Positions 3,308 to 50,283 of a stretch of 64,000 bases of DNA are shown here, piece by piece. Below the pieces are notes generated by a model, which did no database searches, was not told where the DNA came from, and saw nothing but the letters and a program-made list of their open reading frames with translations. The stretch lies in assembly GCF_055900595.2 (NCBI RefSeq), contig NZ_CM148325.1. The stretch is one strand, 5' to 3'. A program made the position numbers and the translations under genes. Position 1 is the first letter of the stretch. Each line of letters starts with the position of its first letter.

Positions 3308-3316
3308 TGTTACGGG
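3308..3316. repeat. Left copy of the 9-bp IS1 target-site duplication (TGTTACGGG)
   Basis: The identical 9-mer directly flanks both IS1 ends. Confidence 0.85.
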
Positions 3317-3371
3317 GGTGATGCTGCCAACTTACTGATTTAGTGTATGATGGTGTTTTTGAGGTGCTCCA

Positions 3372-3647
3372 GTGGCTTCTGTTTCTATCAGCTGTCCCTC
3401 CTGTTCAGCTACTGACGGGGTGGTGCGTAACGGCAAAAGCACCGCCGGACATCAGCGCTATCTCTGCTCTCACTGCCGTAAAACATGGCAACTGCAGTTC
3501 ACTTACACCGCTTCTCAACCCGGTACGCACCAGAAAATCATTGATATGGCCATGAATGGCGTTGGATGCCGGGCAACTGCCCGCATTATGGGCGTTGGCC
3601 TCAACACGATTTTACGTCACTTAAAAAACTCAGGCCGCAGTCGGTAA
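3372..3647 (+). CDS. insA: IS1 protein InsA
   Basis: 91-aa [24 protein letters not shown]..., Zn-finger/HTH InsA. Confidence 0.95.
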
Positions 3648-4069
3648 CCTCGCGCATACAGCCGGGCAGTGACGTCATCGTCTGCGCGGAAATGGACGAA
3701 CAGTGGGGCTATGTCGGGGCTAAATCGCGCCAGCGCTGGCTGTTTTACGCGTATGACAGGCTCCGGAAGACGGTTGTTGCGCACGTATTCGGTGAACGCA
3801 CTATGGCGACGCTGGGGCGTCTTATGAGCCTGCTGTCACCCTTTGACGTGGTGATATGGATGACGGATGGCTGGCCGCTGTATGAATCCCGCCTGAAGGG
3901 AAAGCTGCACGTAATCAGCAAGCGATATACGCAGCGAATTGAGCGGCATAACCTGAATCTGAGGCAGCACCTGGCACGGCTGGGACGGAAGTCGCTGTCG
4001 TTCTCAAAATCGGTGGAGCTGCATGACAAAGTCATCGGGCATTATCTGAACATAAAACACTATCAATAA
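3566..4069 (+). CDS. insB: IS1 InsB (transposase made as an InsAB' fusion by -1 frameshift)
   Basis: 167-aa ORF overlapping the insA 3' end in the -1 frame, the standard IS1 arrangement. Confidence 0.9.
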
Positions 4070-4084
4070 GTTGGAGTCATTACC

Positions 4085-4093
4085 TGTTACGGG
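4085..4093. repeat. Right copy of the 9-bp IS1 target-site duplication (TGTTACGGG)
   Basis: Identical to 3308..3316. Confidence 0.85.
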
Positions 4094-4313: not shown

Positions 4314-5429
4314 TTAGAACTGGTAGACGATACCAACTGCAAACTGGTCATCAGCTGCTGCGCCAGTAATGGCGGCGTCATCTTTATCCAGCATGTTGAA
4401 TTTGTATGCAGTATAAACGTTCATGTTCTTATTAAAGTAGTACCAGGTACCAACTTCAATGTAGTTCACACGGTCAGCGTCAACATATCTATGTCCAGGT
4501 ACCCCTTTGATATCTTTACCTTTAGAGTACACATAACCTAAGGACGGACGCAGACCAAAGTCGAATTGATACTGAACAACCGCTTCAAAGTTCTGGGTTT
4601 CATTGATAAGTTGATCACGCATTATTGTATTGCCTTCTCGATCGGCAACACCTGTATCAATAGAACCCGGAGTCATATTACGAGTTTCGCCGTACATTAC
4701 AGCTGCGTAGACATTGTTCGCGTCATACTTTGCAGCCAACGACCACAGTTCAGCATTTGAACCGTTTCCATCGGCAACTTGATCGTTGGTGCGATCAGAT
4801 TTGCTATATGCACCAACGATACCAAAACCATTGATGTTATAGTCTACAGACAACGCATAGCCGTCACCATTTTGTTTCTTAGTGCTACGGTTGCTGTTTT
4901 TGCCTTGGTACTGAATCGCAAAATCAAGACCATCAACCAGGCCAAAGAAATCATAGTTACGGTAGGTTGCAACACCGTTGGTACGACCATTCATGAAGTT
5001 GTCAGCGGAAGCCCAGGAATCGCCACCCCATTCAACTAACATATCGGTATAAGCTGCGGCATCATAAGCAACACCGTAGTTACGGCCATAGTCAAATGAT
5101 CCTAACTCGTTATATTTCAAACCGGCGAAGGTTAAACGGGTTTTTTCCTGGTTTTCACCTTCGGGCTTGCTGGCGTCGAGGTTGTATTCAAACTGACCAA
5201 AACCAGTCAGTTCGCTGGTGATTTGGGTTTCACCTTTAACACCGAAACGAGCATAGGAGGTATCTTCGTTTTCGCTGTTATTATCATCAGTATTTGACCA
5301 GATGCGTTCGCCAACCATCTTGCCGTAGAAATCAACTTTATTGCCATCTTTATTATAAATTTCAGCCGCATTTGCTGCGCCAGCAACTAATAACGCCGGG
5401 ACCAGCATTGCCAGAACTTTTCTTTTCAT
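4314..5429 (-). CDS. yedS: Outer-membrane general porin, OmpC/NmpC family, apparently intact
   Basis: Track ORF 4314..5459; start trimmed to [21 protein letters not shown] signal peptide; C-terminal ...GIVYQF beta-barrel signature. Confidence 0.8.
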
Positions 5430-5976
5430 TATGTATTCCCTTGTGATTATAATCTTCATGAATATATCAATAAGTGCCGTTATCCAAAAAAAAGCACATT
5501 TGGATACTATTCTATGAAGTTCATTTTATTTTAAGGATTACATGTAACAAATGTATTTAAAAGATTTCAAAATGTTTCTAATCTATTTAATATAATTCGG
5601 GATTATGAATTCTGAATATAAACATTCATGAATATTATAAATGCATATCAATAAGTTATGAGTTGAGCAGAAAGATAGGGGGTATCAATGATTGTTGCGC
5701 TAAACACCTGGTGTGATCACGCGCACATTAATGAAGGAATAAAAAAAGCCGGCATCATGCCGGCCCCAAAAATATAAACAAGACGATAAAAGGCTAATAA
5801 CGTAAGCATCATGACACAGAATAATAAAAAGGTATAATTGTAATCAGTGCTAATATATTGATTAAATGAATTAATAAAGCCGATATCAAAGATAAATAAA
5901 ATCGCTCAAAACGATTTTTCCTGTATTCACTGCCGTTGCGCAAAAATTATCTATTTGTTCAAAAAATGAGTGAGTC

Positions 5977-22993: not shown

Positions 22994-26318
<3,325 letters not shown>

Positions 26319-26532
26319 CGCGCACCTCGTGGCTGATTATGGACGGCGTTATTGGCAAAGTGGAACAAGACTCACTCCCGGGTCAGCAAACTCGAAAAAT
26401 TGACGCTCCCATTATTTGTGCTTTCGTTTTTTTCTATCCGCCAATAAACCCGTTTTTTTGTTGCTATTTAGCGCCTTTGTCTTATTGACTTACTGGTAGG
26501 CTTTGCTACCAGAAATTATCCGGGAGACGAAA
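26319..26532. promoter_or_regulatory. Divergent fliF / fliE promoter region
   Basis: Intergenic region between divergent fliF and fliE; FlhD4C2-dependent class 2 status is inferred from K-12 knowledge, no binding box was mapped here. Confidence 0.5.
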
Positions 26533-26847
26533 ATGTCAGCGATACAGGGGATTGAAGGGGTTATCAGCCAGTTACAGGCTACGGCGATGAGTGCGCGTGC
26601 ACAGGAATCACTGCCACAACCGACCATTAGTTTTGCCGGGCAGCTGCACGCCGCGCTCGATCGCATAAGCGATACACAAACAGCCGCCCGCACGCAGGCA
26701 GAAAAATTCACCCTCGGTGAACCCGGCGTGGCGTTAAACGATGTGATGACCGATATGCAAAAAGCCTCAGTTTCTATGCAAATGGGGATTCAGGTGCGTA
26801 ATAAGCTGGTGGCGGCGTATCAGGAAGTGATGTCCATGCAGGTGTAG
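26533..26847 (+). CDS. fliE: Flagellar hook-basal body protein FliE
   Basis: Start trimmed to [10 protein letters not shown]... (104 aa). Confidence 0.9.
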
Positions 26848-27179
26848 GTTTTGTAACCTGTTGGTAATTACATCCCATCTGCCCGCGTGGGCATGGATGG
26901 GGCAAACTCACCCTATTTCTGGTTTAAAATGGATACCTGATCCTGAAAGTTTTCTGCCATCCACGATCCGTAAACGCGATAACATGTTTTGTCTTCGCTT
27001 TGCTCATAGGAAGAGTGAACTCTTTTGTTAGCCTGGGGTTCCTTCTGATCATTATTGTTCCTGCCTTTATCTCTTGCCACGCCAGAGCCCCCTGGATACA
27101 CATACACCAGGATGAAAACGGTGAGTTGTGTTCAAACTGTAGTACAATTCTCTCCAGTATGAACAGGAAAGAATATGCT

Positions 27180-27512
27180 ATGAACCCTTATATTTATCTT
27201 GGTGGCGCAATACTTGCAGAGGTCATTGGTACAACCTTAATGAAGTTTTCAGAGGGGTTTACACGGTTATGGCCCTCTGTTGGCACAATTATTTGCTATT
27301 GTGCATCATTTTGGTTATTAGCTCAGACACTGGCTTATATACCTACAGGGATTGCTTATGCTATCTGGTCAGGAGTCGGTATCGTTCTGATTAGTTTGCT
27401 TTCCTGGGGATTTTTTGGCCAACGACTGGACTTGCCAGCCATCATAGGCATGATGTTGATTTGTGCCGGTGTGTTAGTCATTAACTTGTTGTCACGAAGC
27501 GCACCGCATTAA
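27180..27512 (+). CDS. emrE: Small multidrug resistance (SMR) efflux transporter EmrE
   Basis: 110-aa four-TM protein MNPYIYLGGAILAEVIGTTLMKFSEGF... with the conserved Glu14; ATG at 27180 inside a longer track ORF. Confidence 0.9.
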   Translation: MNPYIYLGGAILAEVIGTTLMKFSEGFTRLWPSVGTIICYCASFWLLAQTLAYIPTGIAYAIWSGVGIVLISLLSWGFFGQRLDLPAIIGMMLICAGVLVINLLSRSAPH

Positions 27513-27680
27513 AAAATAATCATCCTTGAGATAACAGGAATCTGATTTGTGCATATTATGGCTAATGTTCGGGGCAACTTTATAATTATGATTGCATTTG
27601 CGCGATCATTGCGCCTTTTTGCATAATGAGATCAATGCACATCAAATAAAATAACGATAGGTCACAACAAAGAGGTTTTT

Positions 27681-28232
27681 ATGAAAAAACTTATCGTTTC
27701 AAGTGTATTGGCATTCATAACATTTTCTGCGCAGGCCGCAGCATTTCAGGTCACTAGTAATGAAATAAAAACAGGAGAGCAACTTACAACGTCTCATGTA
27801 TTTTCTGGATTTGGGTGTGAGGGGGGTAATACATCGCCCTCATTAACCTGGTCTGGTGCTCCAGAAGGCACCAAAAGCTTTGCCGTAACTGTGTATGATC
27901 CAGATGCGCCTACAGGCAGCGGATGGTGGCACTGGACTGTTGCTAATATTCCAGCAACGGTAACATATTTGCCCGCTGATGCAGGAAGACGTGATGGTAC
28001 AAAACTTCCGACTGGTGCTGTCCAAGGCCGAAATGATTTTGGCTATGCGGGATTTGGTGGAGCATGTCCTCCCAAAGGAGATAAACCCCATCATTACCAG
28101 TTTAAAATATGGGCTCTAAAAACTGATAAGATTCCTGTGGATTCTAATTCCAGCGGAGCGTTAGTTGGTTATATGCTTAATGCCAATAAAATTGCAACCG
28201 CTGAGATAATACCCGTTTATGAGGTAAAGTAG
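27681..28232 (+). CDS. ybcL: Periplasmic PEBP/RKIP-family protein YbcL
   Basis: 183-aa ORF with signal peptide; matches YbcL. Confidence 0.85.
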   Translation: MKKLIVSSVLAFITFSAQAAAFQVTSNEIKTGEQLTTSHVFSGFGCEGGNTSPSLTWSGAPEGTKSFAVTVYDPDAPTGSGWWHWTVANIPATVTYLPADAGRRDGTKLPTGAVQGRNDFGYAGFGGACPPKGDKPHHYQFKIWALKTDKIPVDSNSSGALVGYMLNANKIATAEIIPVYEVK

Positions 28233-28241
28233 GATAAGAGT

Positions 28242-29039
28242 ATGCTGGCAAAAGATAGGACTAACCTAAAGATTGAAGAAATACGGATGCATAAACATCA
28301 TGAGATTCACAGGGTTAAGCCTCTTATGCCAGCTTTATGTCGTATCCGTCAGGGAAAAAAAGTTATCAATTGGGAGACGCATAGTCTAACTGTTGATAAT
28401 AATCAGATAATATTATTTCCCTGTGGATATGAATTTTATATTGCGAATTACCCAGAAGCAGGTCTTTATCTTGCAGAAATGCTTTATTATCCCATTGATC
28501 TAATTGAAAAGTTCCAAAATCTTTATGCGATAACCGATCAAATTCGTAACACGACAGGTTTCTGCTTACCTCAGAATCCCGAGTTAATATATTGTTGGGA
28601 GCAACTAAAAACATCTATTTCCCGAGGCTTCTCAACGCAAATTCAGGAACACTTAGCAATGGGCGTTCTACTTTCATTAGGAGCACATCATGTTAATTGT
28701 TTACTTTTATCAGATAGTAAACAATCATTAATAAGTCGTTGTTATAACCTAATGCTATCCGAACCTGGAACAAAATGGACAGCAAACAAGGTAGCGAGAT
28801 ATCTCTACATTTCTGTTTCCACATTGCATCGCCGTCTGGCAAGCGAGGGAGTAAGTTTTCAAAGTATATTGGACGACGTGAGGTTAAATAATGCGTTGTC
28901 TGCTATACAAACGACAGTAAAACCCATCAGCGAGATTGCCAGGGAAAATGGTTACAAGTGTCCTTCTCGTTTTACTGAAAGGTTCCATAATCGTTTTAAG
29001 ATAACACCAAGAGAGCTAAGAAAAGCGTCCAGAGAGTAA
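28242..29039 (+). CDS. ybcM: AraC-family transcriptional regulator YbcM
   Basis: 265-aa ORF with C-terminal AraC-type HTH. Confidence 0.82.
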
Positions 29040-29330
29040 AAGTATTTTATGAAGGAGCAACAGCATCGATTTTTATTTTAGAAAATAAATACGGCATACT
29101 CAACCTATTGGAGCCTGAACAATCCGGTGACTTCTGCGCTAATCGGGGACGTTTATAAGCACATATAATTGATATTATCGTCCTCCATCACAATTTCAGA
29201 AATGCACGTGTGATTTTTTTGCATCCGGCGTTTGGACTATGTGGAGTTCAAGAGTGGGAAAGTTACAAGAGGTTGAGGGGATAATTAAAGGGATGCTTAT
29301 GACATTAGATATCCGGATAGGTACGGATAT

Positions 29331-29390
29331 CGTTGTTATTAAATCTAGTTTGTTGTTATTAAATCTAGTTCGTTGTTATTAAATCTGGTT
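29331..29390. repeat. Three tandem copies of a 20-bp unit (YGTTGTTATTAAATCTRGTT)
   Basis: Direct head-to-tail copies at 29331-29350, 29351-29370 and 29371-29390, differing at one or two positions each. Confidence 0.9.
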
Positions 29391-30019
29391 TATACGTTAA
29401 GATGCAACTACAGCAGAAATTGCCACTGTTAATTTTTTCATCGTGAGCCCTTTTATTTGAACTATTATTTAAAAATGATGTCACTGCACTATAAATATTC
29501 ATCCAATCAATGAGATTATTTCAAGATGTAAGTTTTAGTTTCTCATTTAAATTGTGAAGTAGATCCCTATCTTTATCTGAACTGTTTCTATTGCACACAA
29601 TGCATGACTATTTTGTGAACGAATATAAATTTGGTAGTCAAATTATATTAAAGGTTGTTATTTATGATTGACTCATAATTTATTTATTTAATTTAAATAG
29701 CCTAGAAATAACCATGGAAATTATTTGCATGATGTTTGTTTGGATTTATTAATGTAATTGAGGTGGTTTTATTTAATACGCAATATAGCGCCGCTTGATA
29801 TTAGTTCTATTTTTTTTGCGTAAGATAGATGAGACAAACAGAGACGCATAATGGTTTGCAAGGCTCTAATACTTTGATGTTGAGGATGTGATGGGGCATG
29901 TACGGGGCATAGTACAATGATGTCCATGCTGGTGTAGATAATCTCCAGGCTTATCCGGTGCGCCGTAAAACCCCGTCCTTCAGGGCAGGGATATAAGGCG
30001 CGGTTTTCCACCTGACCAG

Positions 30020-30443
30020 GTGTTTGCTGTTGTTCAATGTATTGGCGGATGACGGATATTGGCGCACCTCCGCAGCTACTGGCAAAATAGCCAGCACTCC
30101 ACAAAACGCCTTTGTAGTAATACCTGACTGCAATATCTGGTCGATCTCGTCGCAGTCACCTACCCGATACGCCTTTGAGGCTGTTTACCAGACTGGATAT
30201 CGCCAGTTTGGGAGGATAGTTAATTAACAAATGGACGTGATCTGGTTCGCCATCCATTTCAACCAGTTCAGCTTCAAAATCAGCGCATACATTTGAAAAG
30301 TAAGCGCGTAGTTTTTCTGTCGCGTCATGGTCAAAAATCTGACGTCGGTATCTGGTGACAAAGACCAGGTGAACATGCATCAGGAAAACACAATGCCTTC
30401 CACGCCGGATATCGGTTTCTTTTTTCACAGACCAAAGTATCAT
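30020..30443 (-). pseudogene. tnpA: IS200/IS605 TnpA (HuH Y1 transposase) interrupted by an in-frame TGA after codon 95
   Basis: N-terminal 95 aa carry the HuH motif (HVHLVF); TGA at 30156-30158; the same frame continues ...YYYKGVLWSAGYFASSCGGAPISVIRQYIEQQ (conserved TnpA C-terminus). Confidence 0.75.
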
Positions 30444-30450
30444 TTGGCCT

Positions 30451-31659
30451 GTGAAACGACTACAGGCATTTAAATTCCAGTTAAGACCAGGTGATCAACA
30501 GGAGTGTGAAATGAGGCGCTTCGCAGGCGCATGTCGTTTCGTTTTCAATCGTGCTCTGGCGCTTCAGAATGAGAATCATGAGGCCGGTAATAAATACATC
30601 CCTTACGGGAAAATGGCTTCCTGGCTGGTTGAGTGGAAAAATGCCACTGAAACGCAATGGCTTAAAGATTCTCCCTCACAGCCATTGCAACAGTCACTGA
30701 AAGACCTTGAGCGGGCTTACAAAAACTTCTTCCGGAAGCGGGCTGCTTTTCCCCGATTCAAAAAGCGGGGACAGAATGATGCATTCCGCTACCCGCAGGG
30801 CGTTAAGCTCGATCAGGAAAACAGCCGTATTTTTCTGCCGAAACTGGGCTGGATGCGTTACCGCAATAGCCGTCAGGTCACGGGTGTTGTGAAAAATGTC
30901 ACTGTCAGCCAGTCCTGCGGTAAGTGGTACATCAGTATTCAGACAGAAAGTGAAGTATCCACTCCGGTTCACCCTTCAGCATCAATGGTCGGGCTGGATG
31001 CTGGCGTGGCTAAACTCGCCACGCTGTCAGATGGCACAGTCTTTGAGCCTGTAAACAGTTTTCAGAAAAACCAGAAGACGCTGGCGAGACTTCAGCGACA
31101 GTTAAGCCGCAAGGTCAAATTCAGCAACAACTGGCAGAAGCAGAAACGCAAAATACAGCGACTGCATTCCCGTATCGCAAATATCCGCAGGGACTACCTT
31201 CACAAAGTCACAACGACCGTCAGCAAAAACCACGCAATGATAGTCATTGAGGATTTGAAGGTCAGCAACATGTCAAAGTCAGCAGCGGGTACGGTCAGCC
31301 AGCCGGGGCGCAATGTCCGGGCAAAATCAGGTTTAAACCGTTCGATACTGGATCAGGGCTGGTATGAAATGCGCCGCCAGCTTGAGTACAAGCAGCTCTG
31401 GCGTGGCGGTCAGGTGCTTGCTGTTCCGCCAGCGTACACAAGCCAGCGTTGCGCGTGCTGTGGTCATACAGCGAAAGAAAATCGCCTGTCACAAAGTCAA
31501 TTCAGATGCCAGGTATGTGGATATACAGCGAACGCCGATGTAAACGGCGCTCGTAACATTTTAGCGGCGGGGCACGCCGTTCTTGCCTGTGGAGAGATGG
31601 TGCAGTCAGGCCGCCCGTTGAAGCAGGAACCCACCGAAATGATTCAGGCGACAGCCTGA
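30451..31659 (+). CDS. tnpB: TnpB (IS605 OrfB) RuvC-like RNA-guided endonuclease, apparently intact
   Basis: 402-aa ORF with RuvC-I (GLDAG), RuvC-II (IVIEDLKV), zinc finger (CACCGH...CQVCG) and RuvC-III ([10 protein letters not shown]). GTG start at 30451; an ATG at 30511 is the alternative. Confidence 0.85.
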
Positions 31660-31698
31660 ACGTAGCAGGGATCCTCGTCCTTCAGGGCGTGGAGGATG

Positions 31699-32370
31699 TC
31701 AACAAACAGGTTGAATTAACTCCGCGCCCTGGTTTTTGACATTACCTACCGCGCGCGATACCGGGTGCCAGGTGAACTGGTTTGCTGGCACACAGCCGTT
31801 GGTAGCAATTTCTGATGCTTCTTTACCGCCAATCTCTTGCCGCATCCATTCCCGCGCAGCTTCTGGCGACAGTACCAGCGGGCGGCGGTCATGAATATCT
31901 ACCAGACCCTGGTCTGCTGCTGCAGTGACAATTAAAAATCCTTCGGCTTCGTCACCGCGCTCAAACGGTGTGCTACCTATCGCGGCCATAAAAACAGGTT
32001 GTCCGTCAGCACGATAGATAAAATAAGGCTGTTTTTTGTCGCCTTCTTTTTTCCACTCAAACCAGCCATCGGCAAAACAGATTGCCCGACCATGTTGCCA
32101 GAGCGGTTTAAACATACGACTGGTGGCCGCAGTTTCTACGCGGGCGTTAATCAGCGGCGGTTTATCCCACCATCCGGGAGCATATCCCCAGAAAACCGGA
32201 TCCAGATGAAGGTGTTCATCACGTTCACTGAGCAGAAGAACTTTGGTTCCCGGCGCGACGTTGTATCTGCCAATGGGTTCGGGATCATAGGGAATATCGC
32301 GTTCAATATCTTCCGCGAGAAGCGCAAGGTAATCTTCACGCGTTTGGGATTGGGCAAAGCGTCCACACAT
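31699..32370 (-). CDS. yedK: SOS-response-associated peptidase (SRAP) YedK
   Basis: Start trimmed to MCGRFAQ (catalytic Cys2). Confidence 0.85.
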   Translation of the reverse strand: MCGRFAQSQTREDYLALLAEDIERDIPYDPEPIGRYNVAPGTKVLLLSERDEHLHLDPVFWGYAPGWWDKPPLINARVETAATSRMFKPLWQHGRAICFADGWFEWKKEGDKKQPYFIYRADGQPVFMAAIGSTPFERGDEAEGFLIVTAAADQGLVDIHDRRPLVLSPEAAREWMRQEIGGKEASEIATNGCVPANQFTWHPVSRAVGNVKNQGAELIQPVC

Positions 32371-32478
32371 AGCAACCTCCTGAGAGCACACTGAAAAGAA
32401 TAGGAGAGGGGGCGGGTAAAATCTATGTGGTACAGAGGCAACGATATTCCCGCTGTTGGCCACAGCGGGAATGAGGGA

Positions 32479-32712
32479 TTACTTCTGAATTAAATAACGA
32501 ATGGTCGGCCCGTCTTGCTGAATATCCAGCACCGTATAGCCGTGATTACGAGCATCCAGTGGAATATTATTGATCGACTGCGGACAGTCGCTCACCACTT
32601 CCAGGATCTCACCTTTTTTTAACTGCGGCATCGCCTCAAGGGTTGCGACTGCCGGATAAGGGCAGGGTTCACCCACCATATCAAGACGGTAATCAGGAAT
32701 GATATTTTTCAT
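32479..32712 (-). CDS. yedF: TusA-like sulfur-carrier protein YedF
   Basis: 77-aa ORF with CPxP motif. Confidence 0.85.
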   Translation of the reverse strand: MKNIIPDYRLDMVGEPCPYPAVATLEAMPQLKKGEILEVVSDCPQSINNIPLDARNHGYTVLDIQQDGPTIRYLIQK

Positions 32713-38569: not shown

Positions 38570-40144
38570 ATGGCACAAGTCATTAATACAAACAGCCTGT
38601 CGCTGTTGACCCAGAATAACCTGAACAAATCTCAGTCTTCTCTGAGCTCCGCCATTGAACGTCTCTCTTCTGGCCTGCGTATTAACAGTGCTAAAGATGA
38701 CGCAGCAGGTCAGGCGATTGCTAACCGTTTTACAGCAAATATTAAAGGTCTGACTCAGGCTTCCCGTAACGCGAATGATGGTATTTCTGTTGCGCAGACC
38801 ACTGAAGGTGCGCTTTCTGAAATCAACAATAACTTACAGCGTATTCGTGAATTGTCAGTACAGGCCACTAATGGTACAAACTCTGACTCCGACCTGAATT
38901 CAATTCAGGATGAAATTACACAACGCCTTAGTGAAATTGATCGTGTTTCTAACCAGACACAATTTAATGGTGTAAAAGTTCTGGCTTCTGATCAGACTAT
39001 GAAAATTCAAGTAGGTGCGAACGATGGTGAAACCATTGAGATTGCCCTTGATAAAATTGATGCTAAAACCTTGGGGCTTGATAACTTTAGCGTAGCACCA
39101 GGAAAAGTTCCAATGTCCTCTGCGGTTGCACTTAAGAGCGAAGCCGCTCCTGACTTAACTAAGGTAAATGCAACTGATGGTAGTGTGGGAGGTGCTAAAG
39201 CATTCGGTAGCAATTATAAAAATGCTGATGTTGAAACTTATTTTGGTACCGGTAATGTACAAGATACAAAGGATACAACTGATGCGACCGGTACTGCAGG
39301 AACAAAAGTTTATCAAGTACAGGTGGAAGGGCAGACTTATTTTGTTGGTCAAGATAATAATACCAACACGAACGGTTTTACATTATTGAAACAAAACTCT
39401 ACAGGTTATGAAAAAGTTCAGGTGGGTGGTAAGGATGTTCAGTTAGCAAACTTTGGTGGTCGTATAACTGCATTTGTTGAAGATAATGGTTCTGCCACAT
39501 CAGTTGATTTAGCTGCGGGTAAAATGGGTAAAGCATTAGCTTATAATGATGCACCAATGTCTGTTTATTTTGGGGGAAAAAACCTAGATGTCCACCAAGT
39601 ACAAGATACCCAAGGGAATCCTGTACCTAATTCATTTGCTGCTAAAACATCAGACGGCACCTACATTGCAGTAAATGTAGATGCCGCTACAGGTAACACG
39701 TCTGTTATTACTGATCCTAATGGTAAGGCAGTTGAATGGGCAGTAAAAAATGATGGTTCTGCACAGGCAATTATGCGTGAAGATGATAAGGTTTATACAG
39801 CCAATATCACGAATAAGACGGCAACCAAAGGTGCTGAACTCAGTGCCTCAGATTTGAAAGCCTTAGCAACCACAAATCCATTATCCAAATTAGACGAAGC
39901 TTTGGCAAAAGTTGATAAGTTGCGCAGTTCTTTGGGTGCAGTACAAAACCGTTTCGACTCTGCCATCACCAACCTTGGCAACACCGTAAACAACCTGTCT
40001 TCTGCCCGTAGCCGTATAGAAGATGCTGACTACGCAACCGAAGTGTCTAACATGTCTCGTGCGCAGATCCTGCAACAAGCGGGTACCTCTGTTCTGGCAC
40101 AGGCTAACCAGACCACGCAGAACGTACTGTCTCTGCTGCGTTAA
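38570..40144 (+). CDS. fliC: Flagellin FliC (H antigen), 524 aa
   Basis: Conserved N- and C-terminal flagellin domains ([22 protein letters not shown]... / ...QNVLSLLR) around a divergent central domain. Confidence 0.95.
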
Positions 40145-50196: not shown

Positions 50197-50283
50197 GCCC
50201 GGATGGTGGAATCGGTAGACACAAGGGATTTAAAATCCCTCGGCGTTCGCGCTGTGCGGGTTCAAGTCCCGCTCCGGGTACCA
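50197..50283 (+). tRNA. leuZ: tRNA-Leu (anticodon TAA), long variable arm
   Basis: 87-nt GCCCGGATGGTGGAATCGGTAGACAC...GGTTCAAGTCCCGCTCCGGGTACCA. Confidence 0.93.

Follow-up and report, generated by a model that had tools for sequence, protein, structure and literature searches.

What placed emrE, ybcL and ybcM, three genes carried in E. coli K-12 by the prophage DLP12, between fliE and yedK? In the window (the whole 64,000-nucleotide stretch of contig NZ_CM148325.1, assembly GCF_055900595.2, that was analysed) the trio lies exactly where a first-pass annotation had put it (Table 1). That annotation took the genes to be a portable lambdoid "moron" module outside any prophage context. Our analysis reveals instead that they sit inside a 3.1-kb prophage skeleton with att repeats and phage relics, and that positions 26828–29937 are very probably what remains of a DLP12-like lambdoid prophage at fliE. 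The annotation was right that intact phage structural and integrase genes are missing from the window, the 64 kb of which are otherwise K-12-like core, but an integrase pseudogene and relics of Q, ylcH and a porin gene are present.

Table 1. Features of the fliE–yedK interval, with positions in the window.
Feature	Position	Strand	Description and evidence
fliE	26533-26847	+	104 aa, intact; last 20 nt = attachment-site core; ORF, and annotated fliE in matching genomes
attL	26828-26863	+	Core TGATGTCCATGCAGGTGTAG (26828-26847), then 16 nt of phage P′ arm
Integrase pseudogene, C-terminal piece	26889-26999	-	3′ end facing fliE; in-frame stop; tblastn E 4e-14
Integrase pseudogene, middle piece	about 26978-27088	-	About residues 230-277; tblastn over 210-277, 41% identity, E 1.6e-10
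ren last bases and ren-emrE spacer	27104-27179	+	92% identical to DLP12 (blastn)
emrE	27180-27512	+	110 aa; SMR proton/drug antiporter; NCBIfam match
Terminator-like hairpin with T run	27600-27623	+	Between emrE and ybcL; consensus scan
ybcL	27681-28232	+	183 aa; periplasmic PEBP/RKIP-family protein; NCBIfam PRK09818 match
ybcM	28242-29039	+	265 aa; AraC-family regulator; start 10 bp past ybcL; Pfam HTH_18
ylcH relic	29161-29214	+	In-frame stop; tblastn E 4.5e-5; last DLP12-colinear stretch before deletion
Antiterminator Q relic	29260-29349	+	Final 30 codons; QuuD-like (63% aa identity, tblastn E 2e-8)
Three tandem copies of a 20-bp unit	29330-29391	+	Unit made from Q end; at porin-deletion junction; Nissle alignment
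NmpC/OmpD-type phage porin gene	29400-29441	-	First 14 codons, MKKLTVAISAVVAS; tblastn, blastn map
AT-rich porin upstream region	29442-29917		Runs into right (P) arm of prophage
attR core	29918-29937	+	TGATGTCCATGCTGGTGTAG; 19/20 positions = fliE end; repeat search
IS609-type IS200/IS605 element	about 29956-31702		NCBIfam; ends set by Nissle comparison; subterminal repeats
yedK	31699-32370	-	Right-hand chromosomal flank

By their family matches, the products of the three intact genes are assigned as EmrE (an SMR transporter), YbcL (PEBP/RKIP-like) and YbcM (AraC-family). EmrE scores 237.9 bits against NCBIfam NF042984 (cutoff 226; residues 1–109), contains the essential, membrane-embedded Glu14 (MNPYIYLGGAILAE), and is 98.2% identical to the K-12 DLP12 protein and 100% identical to those of Nissle and O111. 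YbcL scores 400.7 bits against NF007330 (PRK09818; cutoff 277), begins with an N-terminus, MKKLIVSSVLAFITFSAQAAA, that is signal-peptide-like when judged by eye, and shares 95.1% identity with its DLP12 counterpart. Residue 99 of the YbcL precursor is Ala in the window allele, Thr in Nissle and Val in K-12. In YbcM, residues 185–261 match Pfam HTH_18 (E 3e-16), and identity to the DLP12 protein is 91.7% over the full length. From work in K-12, EmrE is known for proton-coupled efflux of cationic toxic compounds, while the K-12 and UPEC literature describes ybcL–ybcM as encoding a periplasmic PEBP protein and an AraC-type autoregulator; YbcL has been studied in UPEC strains as a suppressor of neutrophil migration. 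Binding of YbcM upstream of ybcLM has been reported in K-12 (PMC8464067).

Because dN/dS against the DLP12 copies is low (emrE 0.02, ybcL 0.09, ybcM 0.12), the comparison indicates that purifying selection keeps all three genes. Synonymous divergence from the same copies is 0.23–0.38 and, judged at these sites, shows DLP12 and the fliE island to be old, separate phage lineages. Between the window trio and the Nissle island dS is 0.02–0.08, which we judge to fall within the usual synonymous divergence between E. coli phylogroups. GC content is 35–45% over positions 27000–29000, as against 50–58% in the flanking fli genes and the yedK–yedE region.

The boundaries of the island are those of an integrated phage. 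All 36 nt of attL match the live phage IdasGreatGrand exactly, in which the last 20 nt of fliE and the 16 nt downstream follow directly after the int stop codon; this 36-bp stretch is, by its sequence, the attP of that phage. A longer pattern that includes the core has a single occurrence in the window, where chance predicts none. In genomes that lack the IS element, 16 bp separate the attR core from the yedK stop codon; the 20-nt core is conserved as a direct repeat in O111 and Nissle. The P arm beside attR does not match the P arm of IdasGreatGrand.

Adjacent to attL lie two pieces of an integrase pseudogene. The C-terminal piece corresponds to residues 387–423 of the 434-aa IdasGreatGrand integrase (78% identity), and the DNA of the relic is 86–87% identical to that phage. 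The orientation of this piece, 3′ end toward fliE, is the layout of a lambdoid attL. An internal deletion joins it to the middle piece, which is truncated on its 5′ side against the ren–emrE spacer and is specific to the emrE haplotype, whereas the C-terminal piece is common to the emrE-type and K-12-type alleles and is found in 5,159 of the 5,426 complete E. coli genomes surveyed. Among integrases of live lambdoid phages the relic matches, besides that of IdasGreatGrand (78% amino acid identity, E 7e-20), that of Enterobacter phage CobraSix (73%); the K-12 intG fragment likewise hits phage integrases at E 7e-20. NCBIfam models gave no match to the window fragment, which is too short and degraded for them; tblastn against phage genomes did match. 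The DLP12 integrase IntD, considered as a source of the relic, was rejected, as it belongs to another family and has no match here.

Between the att cores, the order int′, ren end, emrE, ybcL, ybcM, ylcH′, Q′, porin′ is that of DLP12 and of phage PhiR34_1, strands included. The three cargo genes are 91–94% identical to DLP12 at the nucleotide level and have the same order and orientation, as the annotation noted, but they are not contiguous there, DLP12 reading emrE–ylcJ–ybcK–ybcL–ybcM and the window island being without ylcJ and ybcK. A BLAST comparison of the flanks with DLP12, which the annotation had proposed, recovers colinear phage relics on both sides of the trio. Both elements are defective lambdoid prophages and share ren upstream and ylcH, Q and an NmpC-type porin downstream. 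The longer matching blocks run from the end of ren through emrE (92%, as also in phage PhiR47_2 for the ren–emrE match), across ybcL–ybcM–ylcH′ (89%), over the 3′ end of Q (82% to quuD by blastn) and over the 5′ end of nmpC and its upstream region (82%, with positions 29401–29779 matching the nmpC–essD spacer). Only about 9 nt of ren coding sequence remain, and colinearity past ybcM ends at 29246; the Q–porin junction that follows is common to many lambdoid phages. Nissle 1917 and strains like it have an intact porin gene (1083 bp) at this point. The two prophages differ in attachment site (tRNA-argU for DLP12, the fliE 3′ end for the window island) and in decay, DLP12, at about 21 kb, still having int, rusA, Q and lysis genes, and the window island, at 3.1 kb, no intact phage gene.

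The IS609-type element between the island and yedK had been overlooked in the first-pass annotation. Its tnpA is frameshifted (minus strand, about 29990–30443) and its tnpB is intact (plus strand, 30451–31659). It is no part of the prophage but a later arrival that inserted at the stop codon of yedK, and it adds one residue to the YedK C-terminus, which reads QPVC in place of QPV.

Live phages carry the same genes in the same surroundings. PhiR34_1, PhiR68_2 and PhiR70_1 are packaged, plaque-forming lambdoid genomes in which ren precedes emrE–ybcK–ybcL–ybcM and ybcN/ninB follows, Q and the gene for an OmpD-type porin lying further downstream; the full order, read in PhiR34_1, is ren–emrE–ylcJ–ybcK–ybcL–ybcM–ybcN...Q–porin. 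Their alleles are of the DLP12 type and 87.5% identical to the window, and they differ from it in having ybcK and another integrase. YbcM alleles of the DLP12 type also occur on 35 IMG/VR viral contigs, most with the same flanking genes, and the contigs that reach far enough upstream have the same ren–emrE–ybcK order. The proposal that the trio is lambdoid-phage cargo is thus borne out by live phages and viral contigs alike. It shares with morons a variable presence among related phages and a base composition unlike that of its neighbours. Because phages vary in which of these genes they carry, emrE, ybcL and ybcM are separate nin-region cargo and not one unit; PhiR47_2, for example, has emrE and ybcK with another ORF in place of ybcLM.

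Alleles of the fliE type (at least 97% identical) were found in no intact prophage at fliE among complete genomes or sequenced phages, and the best phage identity to them is 87–92%. One IMG/VR contig, L094, joins a fliE-type emrE–ybcLM to cI–cro–cII–O–P–ren and was considered as a less decayed version of the island. We do not rely on it, because its junction occurs in 0 of 5,426 complete genomes; it is possibly a chimeric metagenome assembly across the emrE repeat.

In the survey set of 5,426 complete E. coli genomes, the emrE-type arrangement stands beside fliE in 2,618 (48%) and the K-12 type or its deletion derivatives in 2,683. The annotation had held that its reading would be refuted if this were the ancestral core arrangement in most E. 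coli; at 48% the arrangement is not that of most E. coli, but neither is it rare. The K-12 allele (PR-G, with the intG pseudogene) agrees with the emrE type in locus, in left boundary and in the C-terminal integrase relic against fliE, and contains the LRR-protein pseudogene yedN′ and the GNAT acetyltransferase gene yedL in place of emrE–ybcLM. Of the K-12 content listed by the annotation, intG′, yedN′ and yedL are found, but yedM is no separate feature in the K-12 record; the name is used for the K-12 fliE locus in PMC5122947. The window island has a second att core copy, whereas none was detected within 3 mismatches in K-12-type or seemingly empty alleles. These "empty" fliE–yedK sites were rejected as an ancestral state, being K-12-type alleles with internal deletions in which the integrase relic is still present.

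The same site is in use today. IdasGreatGrand, E. coli UTAK-1 and other fliE-site prophages have the integrase family, att core and orientation of the window island. UTAK-1 contains an intact 38.7-kb prophage arranged as fliE–attL–int–xis...tailspike–attR–old int relic, and the P arm at its attR differs from IdasGreatGrand by 1 mismatch in the 60 nt compared. These phages and prophages are intact and, in the regions inspected, lack the trio, the UTAK-1 nin region consisting of ninB, ninE, ninX and ninF. A full-length integrase is annotated beside fliE in 5 further E. coli genomes, and full-length int and xis lie 24–42 bp after fliE in 12 of 80 representatives of other Enterobacteriaceae species, with fliE-site prophages in Citrobacter, Enterobacter, Leclercia and Kosakonia. 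Six of the 12 have more lambdoid early genes in the 10 kb past fliE (a PhiR34_1 early ORF in 6/6; exo, bet, cI, cro or cII in 5/6). EmrE, YbcL and YbcM were absent within 10 kb downstream of fliE in all 80 representatives. That the fliE-adjacent site is a recurrent integration hotspot, as the annotation supposed, is well supported. In the literature searched, nothing specific was found on fliE as a phage attB or on an emrE island there.

We infer a single ancestral integration followed by successive deletions. A lambda-like phage would have integrated site-specifically into the last 20 nt of fliE, leaving the gene intact by bringing its own copy of that sequence. Some 90% of the phage would then have been lost by deletion: int in large part, the early region from xis to P, ybcK, the genes from ybcN to ylcG along with most of Q, every lysis and structural gene and, in the present strain, the porin gene. 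The intact survivors are nin-region cargo, namely emrE and the ybcL–ybcM pair. Without an integrase the island can no longer move and is inherited vertically as one of two common fliE–yedK alleles, IS609 having landed beside it afterwards. The island has the direct repeats of the att core, the integrase remnant at attL and the colinearity with the lambdoid map that mark a cryptic prophage; of phage replication, regulation, lysis and structural genes it has fragments only (30 codons of Q, 14 of the porin gene, the last nucleotides of ren). It is a terminal-stage remnant and no prophage in the functional sense.

The number of prophages involved leaves room for a different history, in which an older phage left the integrase relic and a second, DLP12-like one, integrating later at the same core or recombining into the first remnant, left emrE–ybcLM–Q′–porin–attR. 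Its appeal lies in the distribution of the parts: the C-terminal integrase piece is present in both alleles and the attR copy in the emrE type only, which counts against certainty that the integrase relic and the nin/Q/porin segment come from one phage. UTAK-1 shows a new phage integrating beside an old relic to give tandem remnants, and the DLP12-like phages in databases use an integrase that has no match here. Yet the middle integrase fragment of the emrE type is contiguous with the C-terminal piece and abuts the ren–emrE spacer, an arrangement most simply read as a single prophage that underwent internal deletions. Tandem integration should also leave a third core copy between the remnants, and none exists within 3 mismatches. 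We therefore hold two successive prophages to be rather unlikely; phage origin would be unchanged in either case.

Readings that dispense with a resident prophage fare far worse. That the trio inserted beside fliE as a self-mobile cassette would suit its occurrence both in several phages and at two places in the chromosome, argU (DLP12) and fliE, together with the lack of intact phage genes in the window. The trio itself, however, encodes neither recombinase nor transposase and lacks terminal repeats, the DNA on either side of it consists of phage relics ordered as in a phage and enclosed by the phage att core, and the cargo varies from phage to phage. The annotation had named phage genes contiguous with the cassette as evidence against its proposal, and these are present as relics beside att repeats; nothing suggests independent movement, and the trio is what deletions left of a whole prophage. 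In our view the relics and repeats already refute the cassette, to which we give almost no credence. Equally far-fetched is the notion that the genes are native to the fliE–yedK interval and were picked up there by lambdoid phages such as DLP12. It would accommodate their presence at fliE in about half of E. coli, the purifying selection and a window–Nissle divergence that we judge to be about as large as in E. coli core genes. Against it stand the low GC content, the phage relics on both sides of the trio inside att repeats, and the absence of the trio past fliE in the 80 representatives, sister Escherichia species included, many of which have a clean convergent fliE/yedF pair; moreover, pick-up from the chromosome would not account for the remains of Q and of the porin gene that follow ybcM. 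In our view the outgroups and the relics have already refuted this reading as well. In sister Escherichia species yedK is missing at this position, so that the bacterial sequence next to attR may likewise be accessory DNA of older date.

Expression of the cargo can be considered from signals in the DNA. The hairpin between emrE and ybcL tentatively suggests that emrE may be transcribed separately from ybcLM. Promoter-like sites in the trio region are weak and fewer than in shuffled sequence, and the same consensus scan found no terminator-like site in the 333 bp from the fliE stop codon to emrE. Integration put phage DNA in place of the sequence that had followed fliE. Because no terminator is detectable there, transcription from the FlhDC-dependent class 2 promoter of fliE could conceivably run on and drive emrE, and perhaps ybcLM, wiring the cargo into the flagellar regulon; we consider this improbable. 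If true, efflux and YbcL production would be coupled to motility in the emrE-type half of E. coli, and this coupling might help explain why the fragment survived while other prophage DNA went. An Rfam scan of positions 26000–32600 gave no match at E ≤0.01.

The emrE–ybcL–ybcM island at fliE is thus real and explained, a neat yet commonplace instance of prophage decay that leaves current concepts unchanged. It shows that a family of lambdoid and P22-like phages still uses the fliE 3′ end as a conserved attachment site across Enterobacteriaceae, and illustrates cleanly where prophage domestication ends, with selected cargo only persisting between recognisable att scars. It also amends the picture that annotation gives. 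In about half of E. coli, UPEC included, emrE, ybcL and ybcM reside in a separate, more eroded fliE-side fossil and not in DLP12. Many genomes carry two diverged copies of the trio, which matters for knock-outs, for the calling of emrE as a resistance gene and for studies that relate YbcL alleles to function.

The window is a piece of E. coli chromosome, 99.1–99.9% identical to its nearest complete genomes over 26400–31800. The genes emrE, ybcL and ybcM lie between fliE and yedK, and the identities of the predicted products can be regarded as secure: EmrE scores 237.9 bits (curated cutoff 226), YbcL scores 400.7 bits (curated cutoff 277), YbcM contains an AraC-type HTH_18 domain, and the three are 98.2%, 95.1% and 91.7% identical, respectively, to the proteins of DLP12, the cryptic lambdoid prophage at argU of K-12. 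The same interval in K-12 holds intG′, yedN′ and yedL, and yedM has also been placed there (PMC5122947). The remainder of the window is K-12-like core without intact phage genes; gene calls and core comparison thus bear out the first-pass annotation in describing the trio beside fliE as free of intact phage genes. Its likening of the trio to DLP12 holds for gene order and not for contiguity, as emrE and ybcL are separated in DLP12 by ylcJ and ybcK, both absent from the window.

Mapping of the window against K-12 DLP12 by blastn reveals homology extending past the trio on both sides, with DLP12 order and orientation kept in all four blocks. Protein-level searches identify a Q relic (last 30 codons, 63% identity, E 2e-8), a porin relic (first 14 codons, − strand) and a ylcH relic interrupted by an in-frame stop. 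In Nissle 1917 and strains like it, the porin gene is intact (1083 bp) and lies exactly between the positions of the Q and porin relics. In the window this porin stretch, roughly 1.2 kb, is deleted and three tandem 20-bp repeats remain at 29330–29391; the repeat unit, TCGTTGTTATTAAATCTAGT, derives from the final Q-relic codons, and the repeats sit exactly at the deletion junction.

Features of the fliE–yedK interval and its flanks, with identities to DLP12 or to the reference integrase
Feature	Position	Strand	Match
fliI, fliH, fliG, fliF	left of fliE	−	
fliE	26533–26847	+	
Integrase fragment	26999–26889	−	residues 387–423 of 434-aa integrase, 78% identity
Integrase fragment	27151–26978	−	residues 210–277, 41% identity, E 1.6e-10
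End of ren, plus whole emrE	27104–27514		92% to DLP12
emrE	27180–27512	+	
ybcL, ybcM, start of ylcH	27526–29246		89% to DLP12
ybcL	27681–28232	+	
ybcM	28242–29039	+	
AT-rich stretch without ORFs	29040–29955		
3′ end of antiterminator gene quuD	29256–29350		82% to DLP12
Porin gene nmpC, 5′ end and upstream region	29401–29779		82% to DLP12
IS200/IS605 element, IS609-type	about 29956–31702		
yedK, then yedF and yedE	yedK 31699–32370	yedK −	

Directly 3′ of fliE come two integrase fragments, both on the − strand. The reference integrase is that of the live phage IdasGreatGrand, found by searching phage genomes with the K-12 intG fragment (E 7e-20), which also matches Enterobacter phage CobraSix (73%) and many Stx phages (57%). 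IdasGreatGrand DNA is 86–87% identical to the region 3′ of fliE. Its attP begins straight after the int stop codon and overlaps the fliE stop codon: 36 bp there match the final 20 nt of fliE and the next 16 nt without a mismatch. The 20-nt core, TGATGTCCATGCAGGTGTAG, recurs with one mismatch at 29918–29937; this second copy is conserved in O111 and Nissle and, where the IS is absent, is separated from the yedK stop codon by 16 bp. The segments run attL, int′, deletion, ren end, emrE, ybcL, ybcM, ylcH′, deletion, Q′, porin′, porin upstream region and attR. With att repeats, int′ and phage relics in order, 26828–29937 therefore shows all the marks of a lambdoid prophage in its integrated state, and it is very probably one reduced to 3.1 kb, at a terminal stage of decay with its cargo genes retained. 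The earlier placement of the trio "outside any prophage context" falls by the yardstick set with it, as relics of int, ren, ylcH, Q and porin lie within the att repeats. An origin from two successive phages, one leaving the integrase relic and the other the nin/Q/porin segment, is less likely than a single-phage origin; it is favored by the K-12 allele, which carries the same integrase relic but without attR.

The genes kept by this reduced prophage are phage cargo. The ybcL-ybcM-Q-porin region has matches in phages PhiR34_1, PhiR68_2 and PhiR70_1, with the order ren-emrE-ylcJ-ybcK-ybcL-ybcM-ybcN-ninE-ybcO-rusA-ylcG-Q-porin in PhiR34_1, while PhiR47_2 has ren-emrE-ybcK and another ORF where ybcLM would sit. 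The DLP12-type YbcM allele occurs in 35 IMG/VR contigs, most with the same flanking genes. Phage-borne copies are DLP12-type and 87–92% identical to the window, and the fliE-linked alleles are a lineage of their own. A 6.6 kb metagenome viral contig (IMGVR_UViG_3300029728_000157) joins cI-cro-cII-O-P-ren to fliE-type emrE-ybcL-ybcM-Q′, the latter part lacking ybcK and being 97.7% identical to the window; its cI-ren/trio junction occurs in no complete E. coli genome, and the contig represents either an uncommon prophage form that is less decayed or a chimera assembled across the emrE repeat.

The fliE 3′ end is used repeatedly. Of 5426 complete E. coli genomes, 5159 carry the integrase relic and 8 have a full-length integrase of IdasGreatGrand type, which is annotated beside fliE in 6. 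E. coli UTAK-1 (NZ_CP157165.1, 2159500–2209400) contains an intact 38.7 kb P22-like prophage at this site, spanning fliE-attL-int-xis to a tailspike gene, with the old integrase relic displaced to its attR side; its attR P arm and the IdasGreatGrand attP arm are almost identical, differing at 1 of 60 compared positions, and emrE, ybcK, ybcL and ybcM are all missing from the inspected regions of this prophage. Beside it lies a leucine-rich-repeat protein of 379 aa, intact, which corresponds to the product broken in the K-12 yedN pseudogene (yedN/yedM). The fliE core codon is TCC (Ser) in phage-type ends versus AGC (Ser) in K-12-type ends, a difference that marks the phage-derived side of the crossover. 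Across 80 loci, one FliE-bearing genome per species, full-length int and xis follow fliE by 24–42 bp in 12 (Citrobacter amalonaticus, C. portucalensis, Enterobacter soli, E. wuhouensis, Leclercia adecarboxylata, Kosakonia quasisacchari and Pseudenterobacter timonensis among them), 6 of which have further lambdoid early genes in the 10 kb examined. Partial relics occur in at least 5 more loci, and many have a clean convergent fliE/yedF pair 52–100 bp apart; EmrE, YbcL and YbcM were found within 10 kb of fliE in none of the 80. The E. coli and cross-species surveys thus support well the proposal of a recurrent integration hotspot beside fliE.

Both common alleles at this site are abundant: of 5426 complete E. 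coli genomes, 2618 (48%) have a fliE-to-emrE junction and 2683 (49%) a K-12-type one. The trio arrangement is neither rare nor that of most E. coli. Seemingly "empty" sites were rejected as the ancestral state, being K-12-type alleles with internal deletions. The ybcM-to-porin junction is retained in 454 emrE-type genomes, and 1064 of the 5426 share the IS609-containing layout of the window (≥80% of 26400–31800). The trio differs from DLP12 by a dS of 0.23–0.38, and the window from the Nissle island by 0.02–0.08; we judge the latter to be of a size commonly seen between E. coli phylogroups, and it points to long vertical residence. A dN/dS of 0.02 for emrE, 0.09 for ybcL and 0.12 for ybcM shows that selection has preserved the trio during decay of the surrounding phage genes.

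Having no integrase, the island is immobile; its proteins probably function as they do in K-12 and UPEC. EmrE, a member of the SMR family, exports cationic compounds by proton coupling. A terminator-like hairpin 3′ of emrE (27600–27623, consensus match only) suggests that emrE and ybcLM would be separate transcription units; the consensus scan found no such site between fliE and emrE. In K-12, YbcM binding has been mapped to ucpA, ubiT and the region upstream of the ybcLM operon, the last of which indicates autoregulation, and ybcM deletion increases H2O2 sensitivity 8-fold (PMC8464067). Lysis releases UPEC YbcL from the periplasm, and the protein suppresses the transepithelial migration of neutrophils; active and inactive variants differ at a single residue (PMC4810123). 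Position 99 of the YbcL precursor (codon 27975–27977) is Ala in the window, Thr in Nissle 1917 and Val in K-12; Nissle 1917 is a B2 strain whose allele type is shared with UPEC strains such as UTI89. The activity-deciding residue is reportedly position 78 of the mature protein, and precursor position 99 may be that residue.

Several other features of the window are of interest. The IS609-type element has a frameshifted tnpA, an intact 402-aa TnpB (RNA-guided nuclease family) and subterminal repeats at 29971–29991 and 31673–31693; its insertion at the yedK stop codon has changed the YedK C-terminus from ...QPV to ...QPVC. An IS1 copy (about 3315–4085) adjoins hchA, and beside it, where K-12 has the yedS pseudogene, lies an intact porin of the OmpF/OmpC family (381 aa; 4314–5459, − strand), strongly diverged from the allele of an O111:NM genome that is otherwise 98.5% identical. 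The predicted H antigen differs from that genome, as indicated by the flagellin gene centre (39036–39935), which is unaligned to it. The tRNA-Leu gene (50197–50283), followed by a P2-like prophage in O111:NM and, from 50352 onward, by yecA-tyrP as in K-12 in the window, is a second phage site here, unoccupied.

Within the fliE–yedF interval, yedK, which encodes an SOS-response-associated peptidase, is absent from sister Escherichia species, Citrobacter and Salmonella, and in Enterobacter cloacae a yedK homologue comes after int relics. The gene may itself be old accessory DNA acquired at the fliE hotspot, and since it is missing there in these relatives, the whole interval of E. coli may be layered accessory DNA. 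The island itself is well defined but unsurprising, and will be of use in genome annotation and in studies of YbcL and EmrE.
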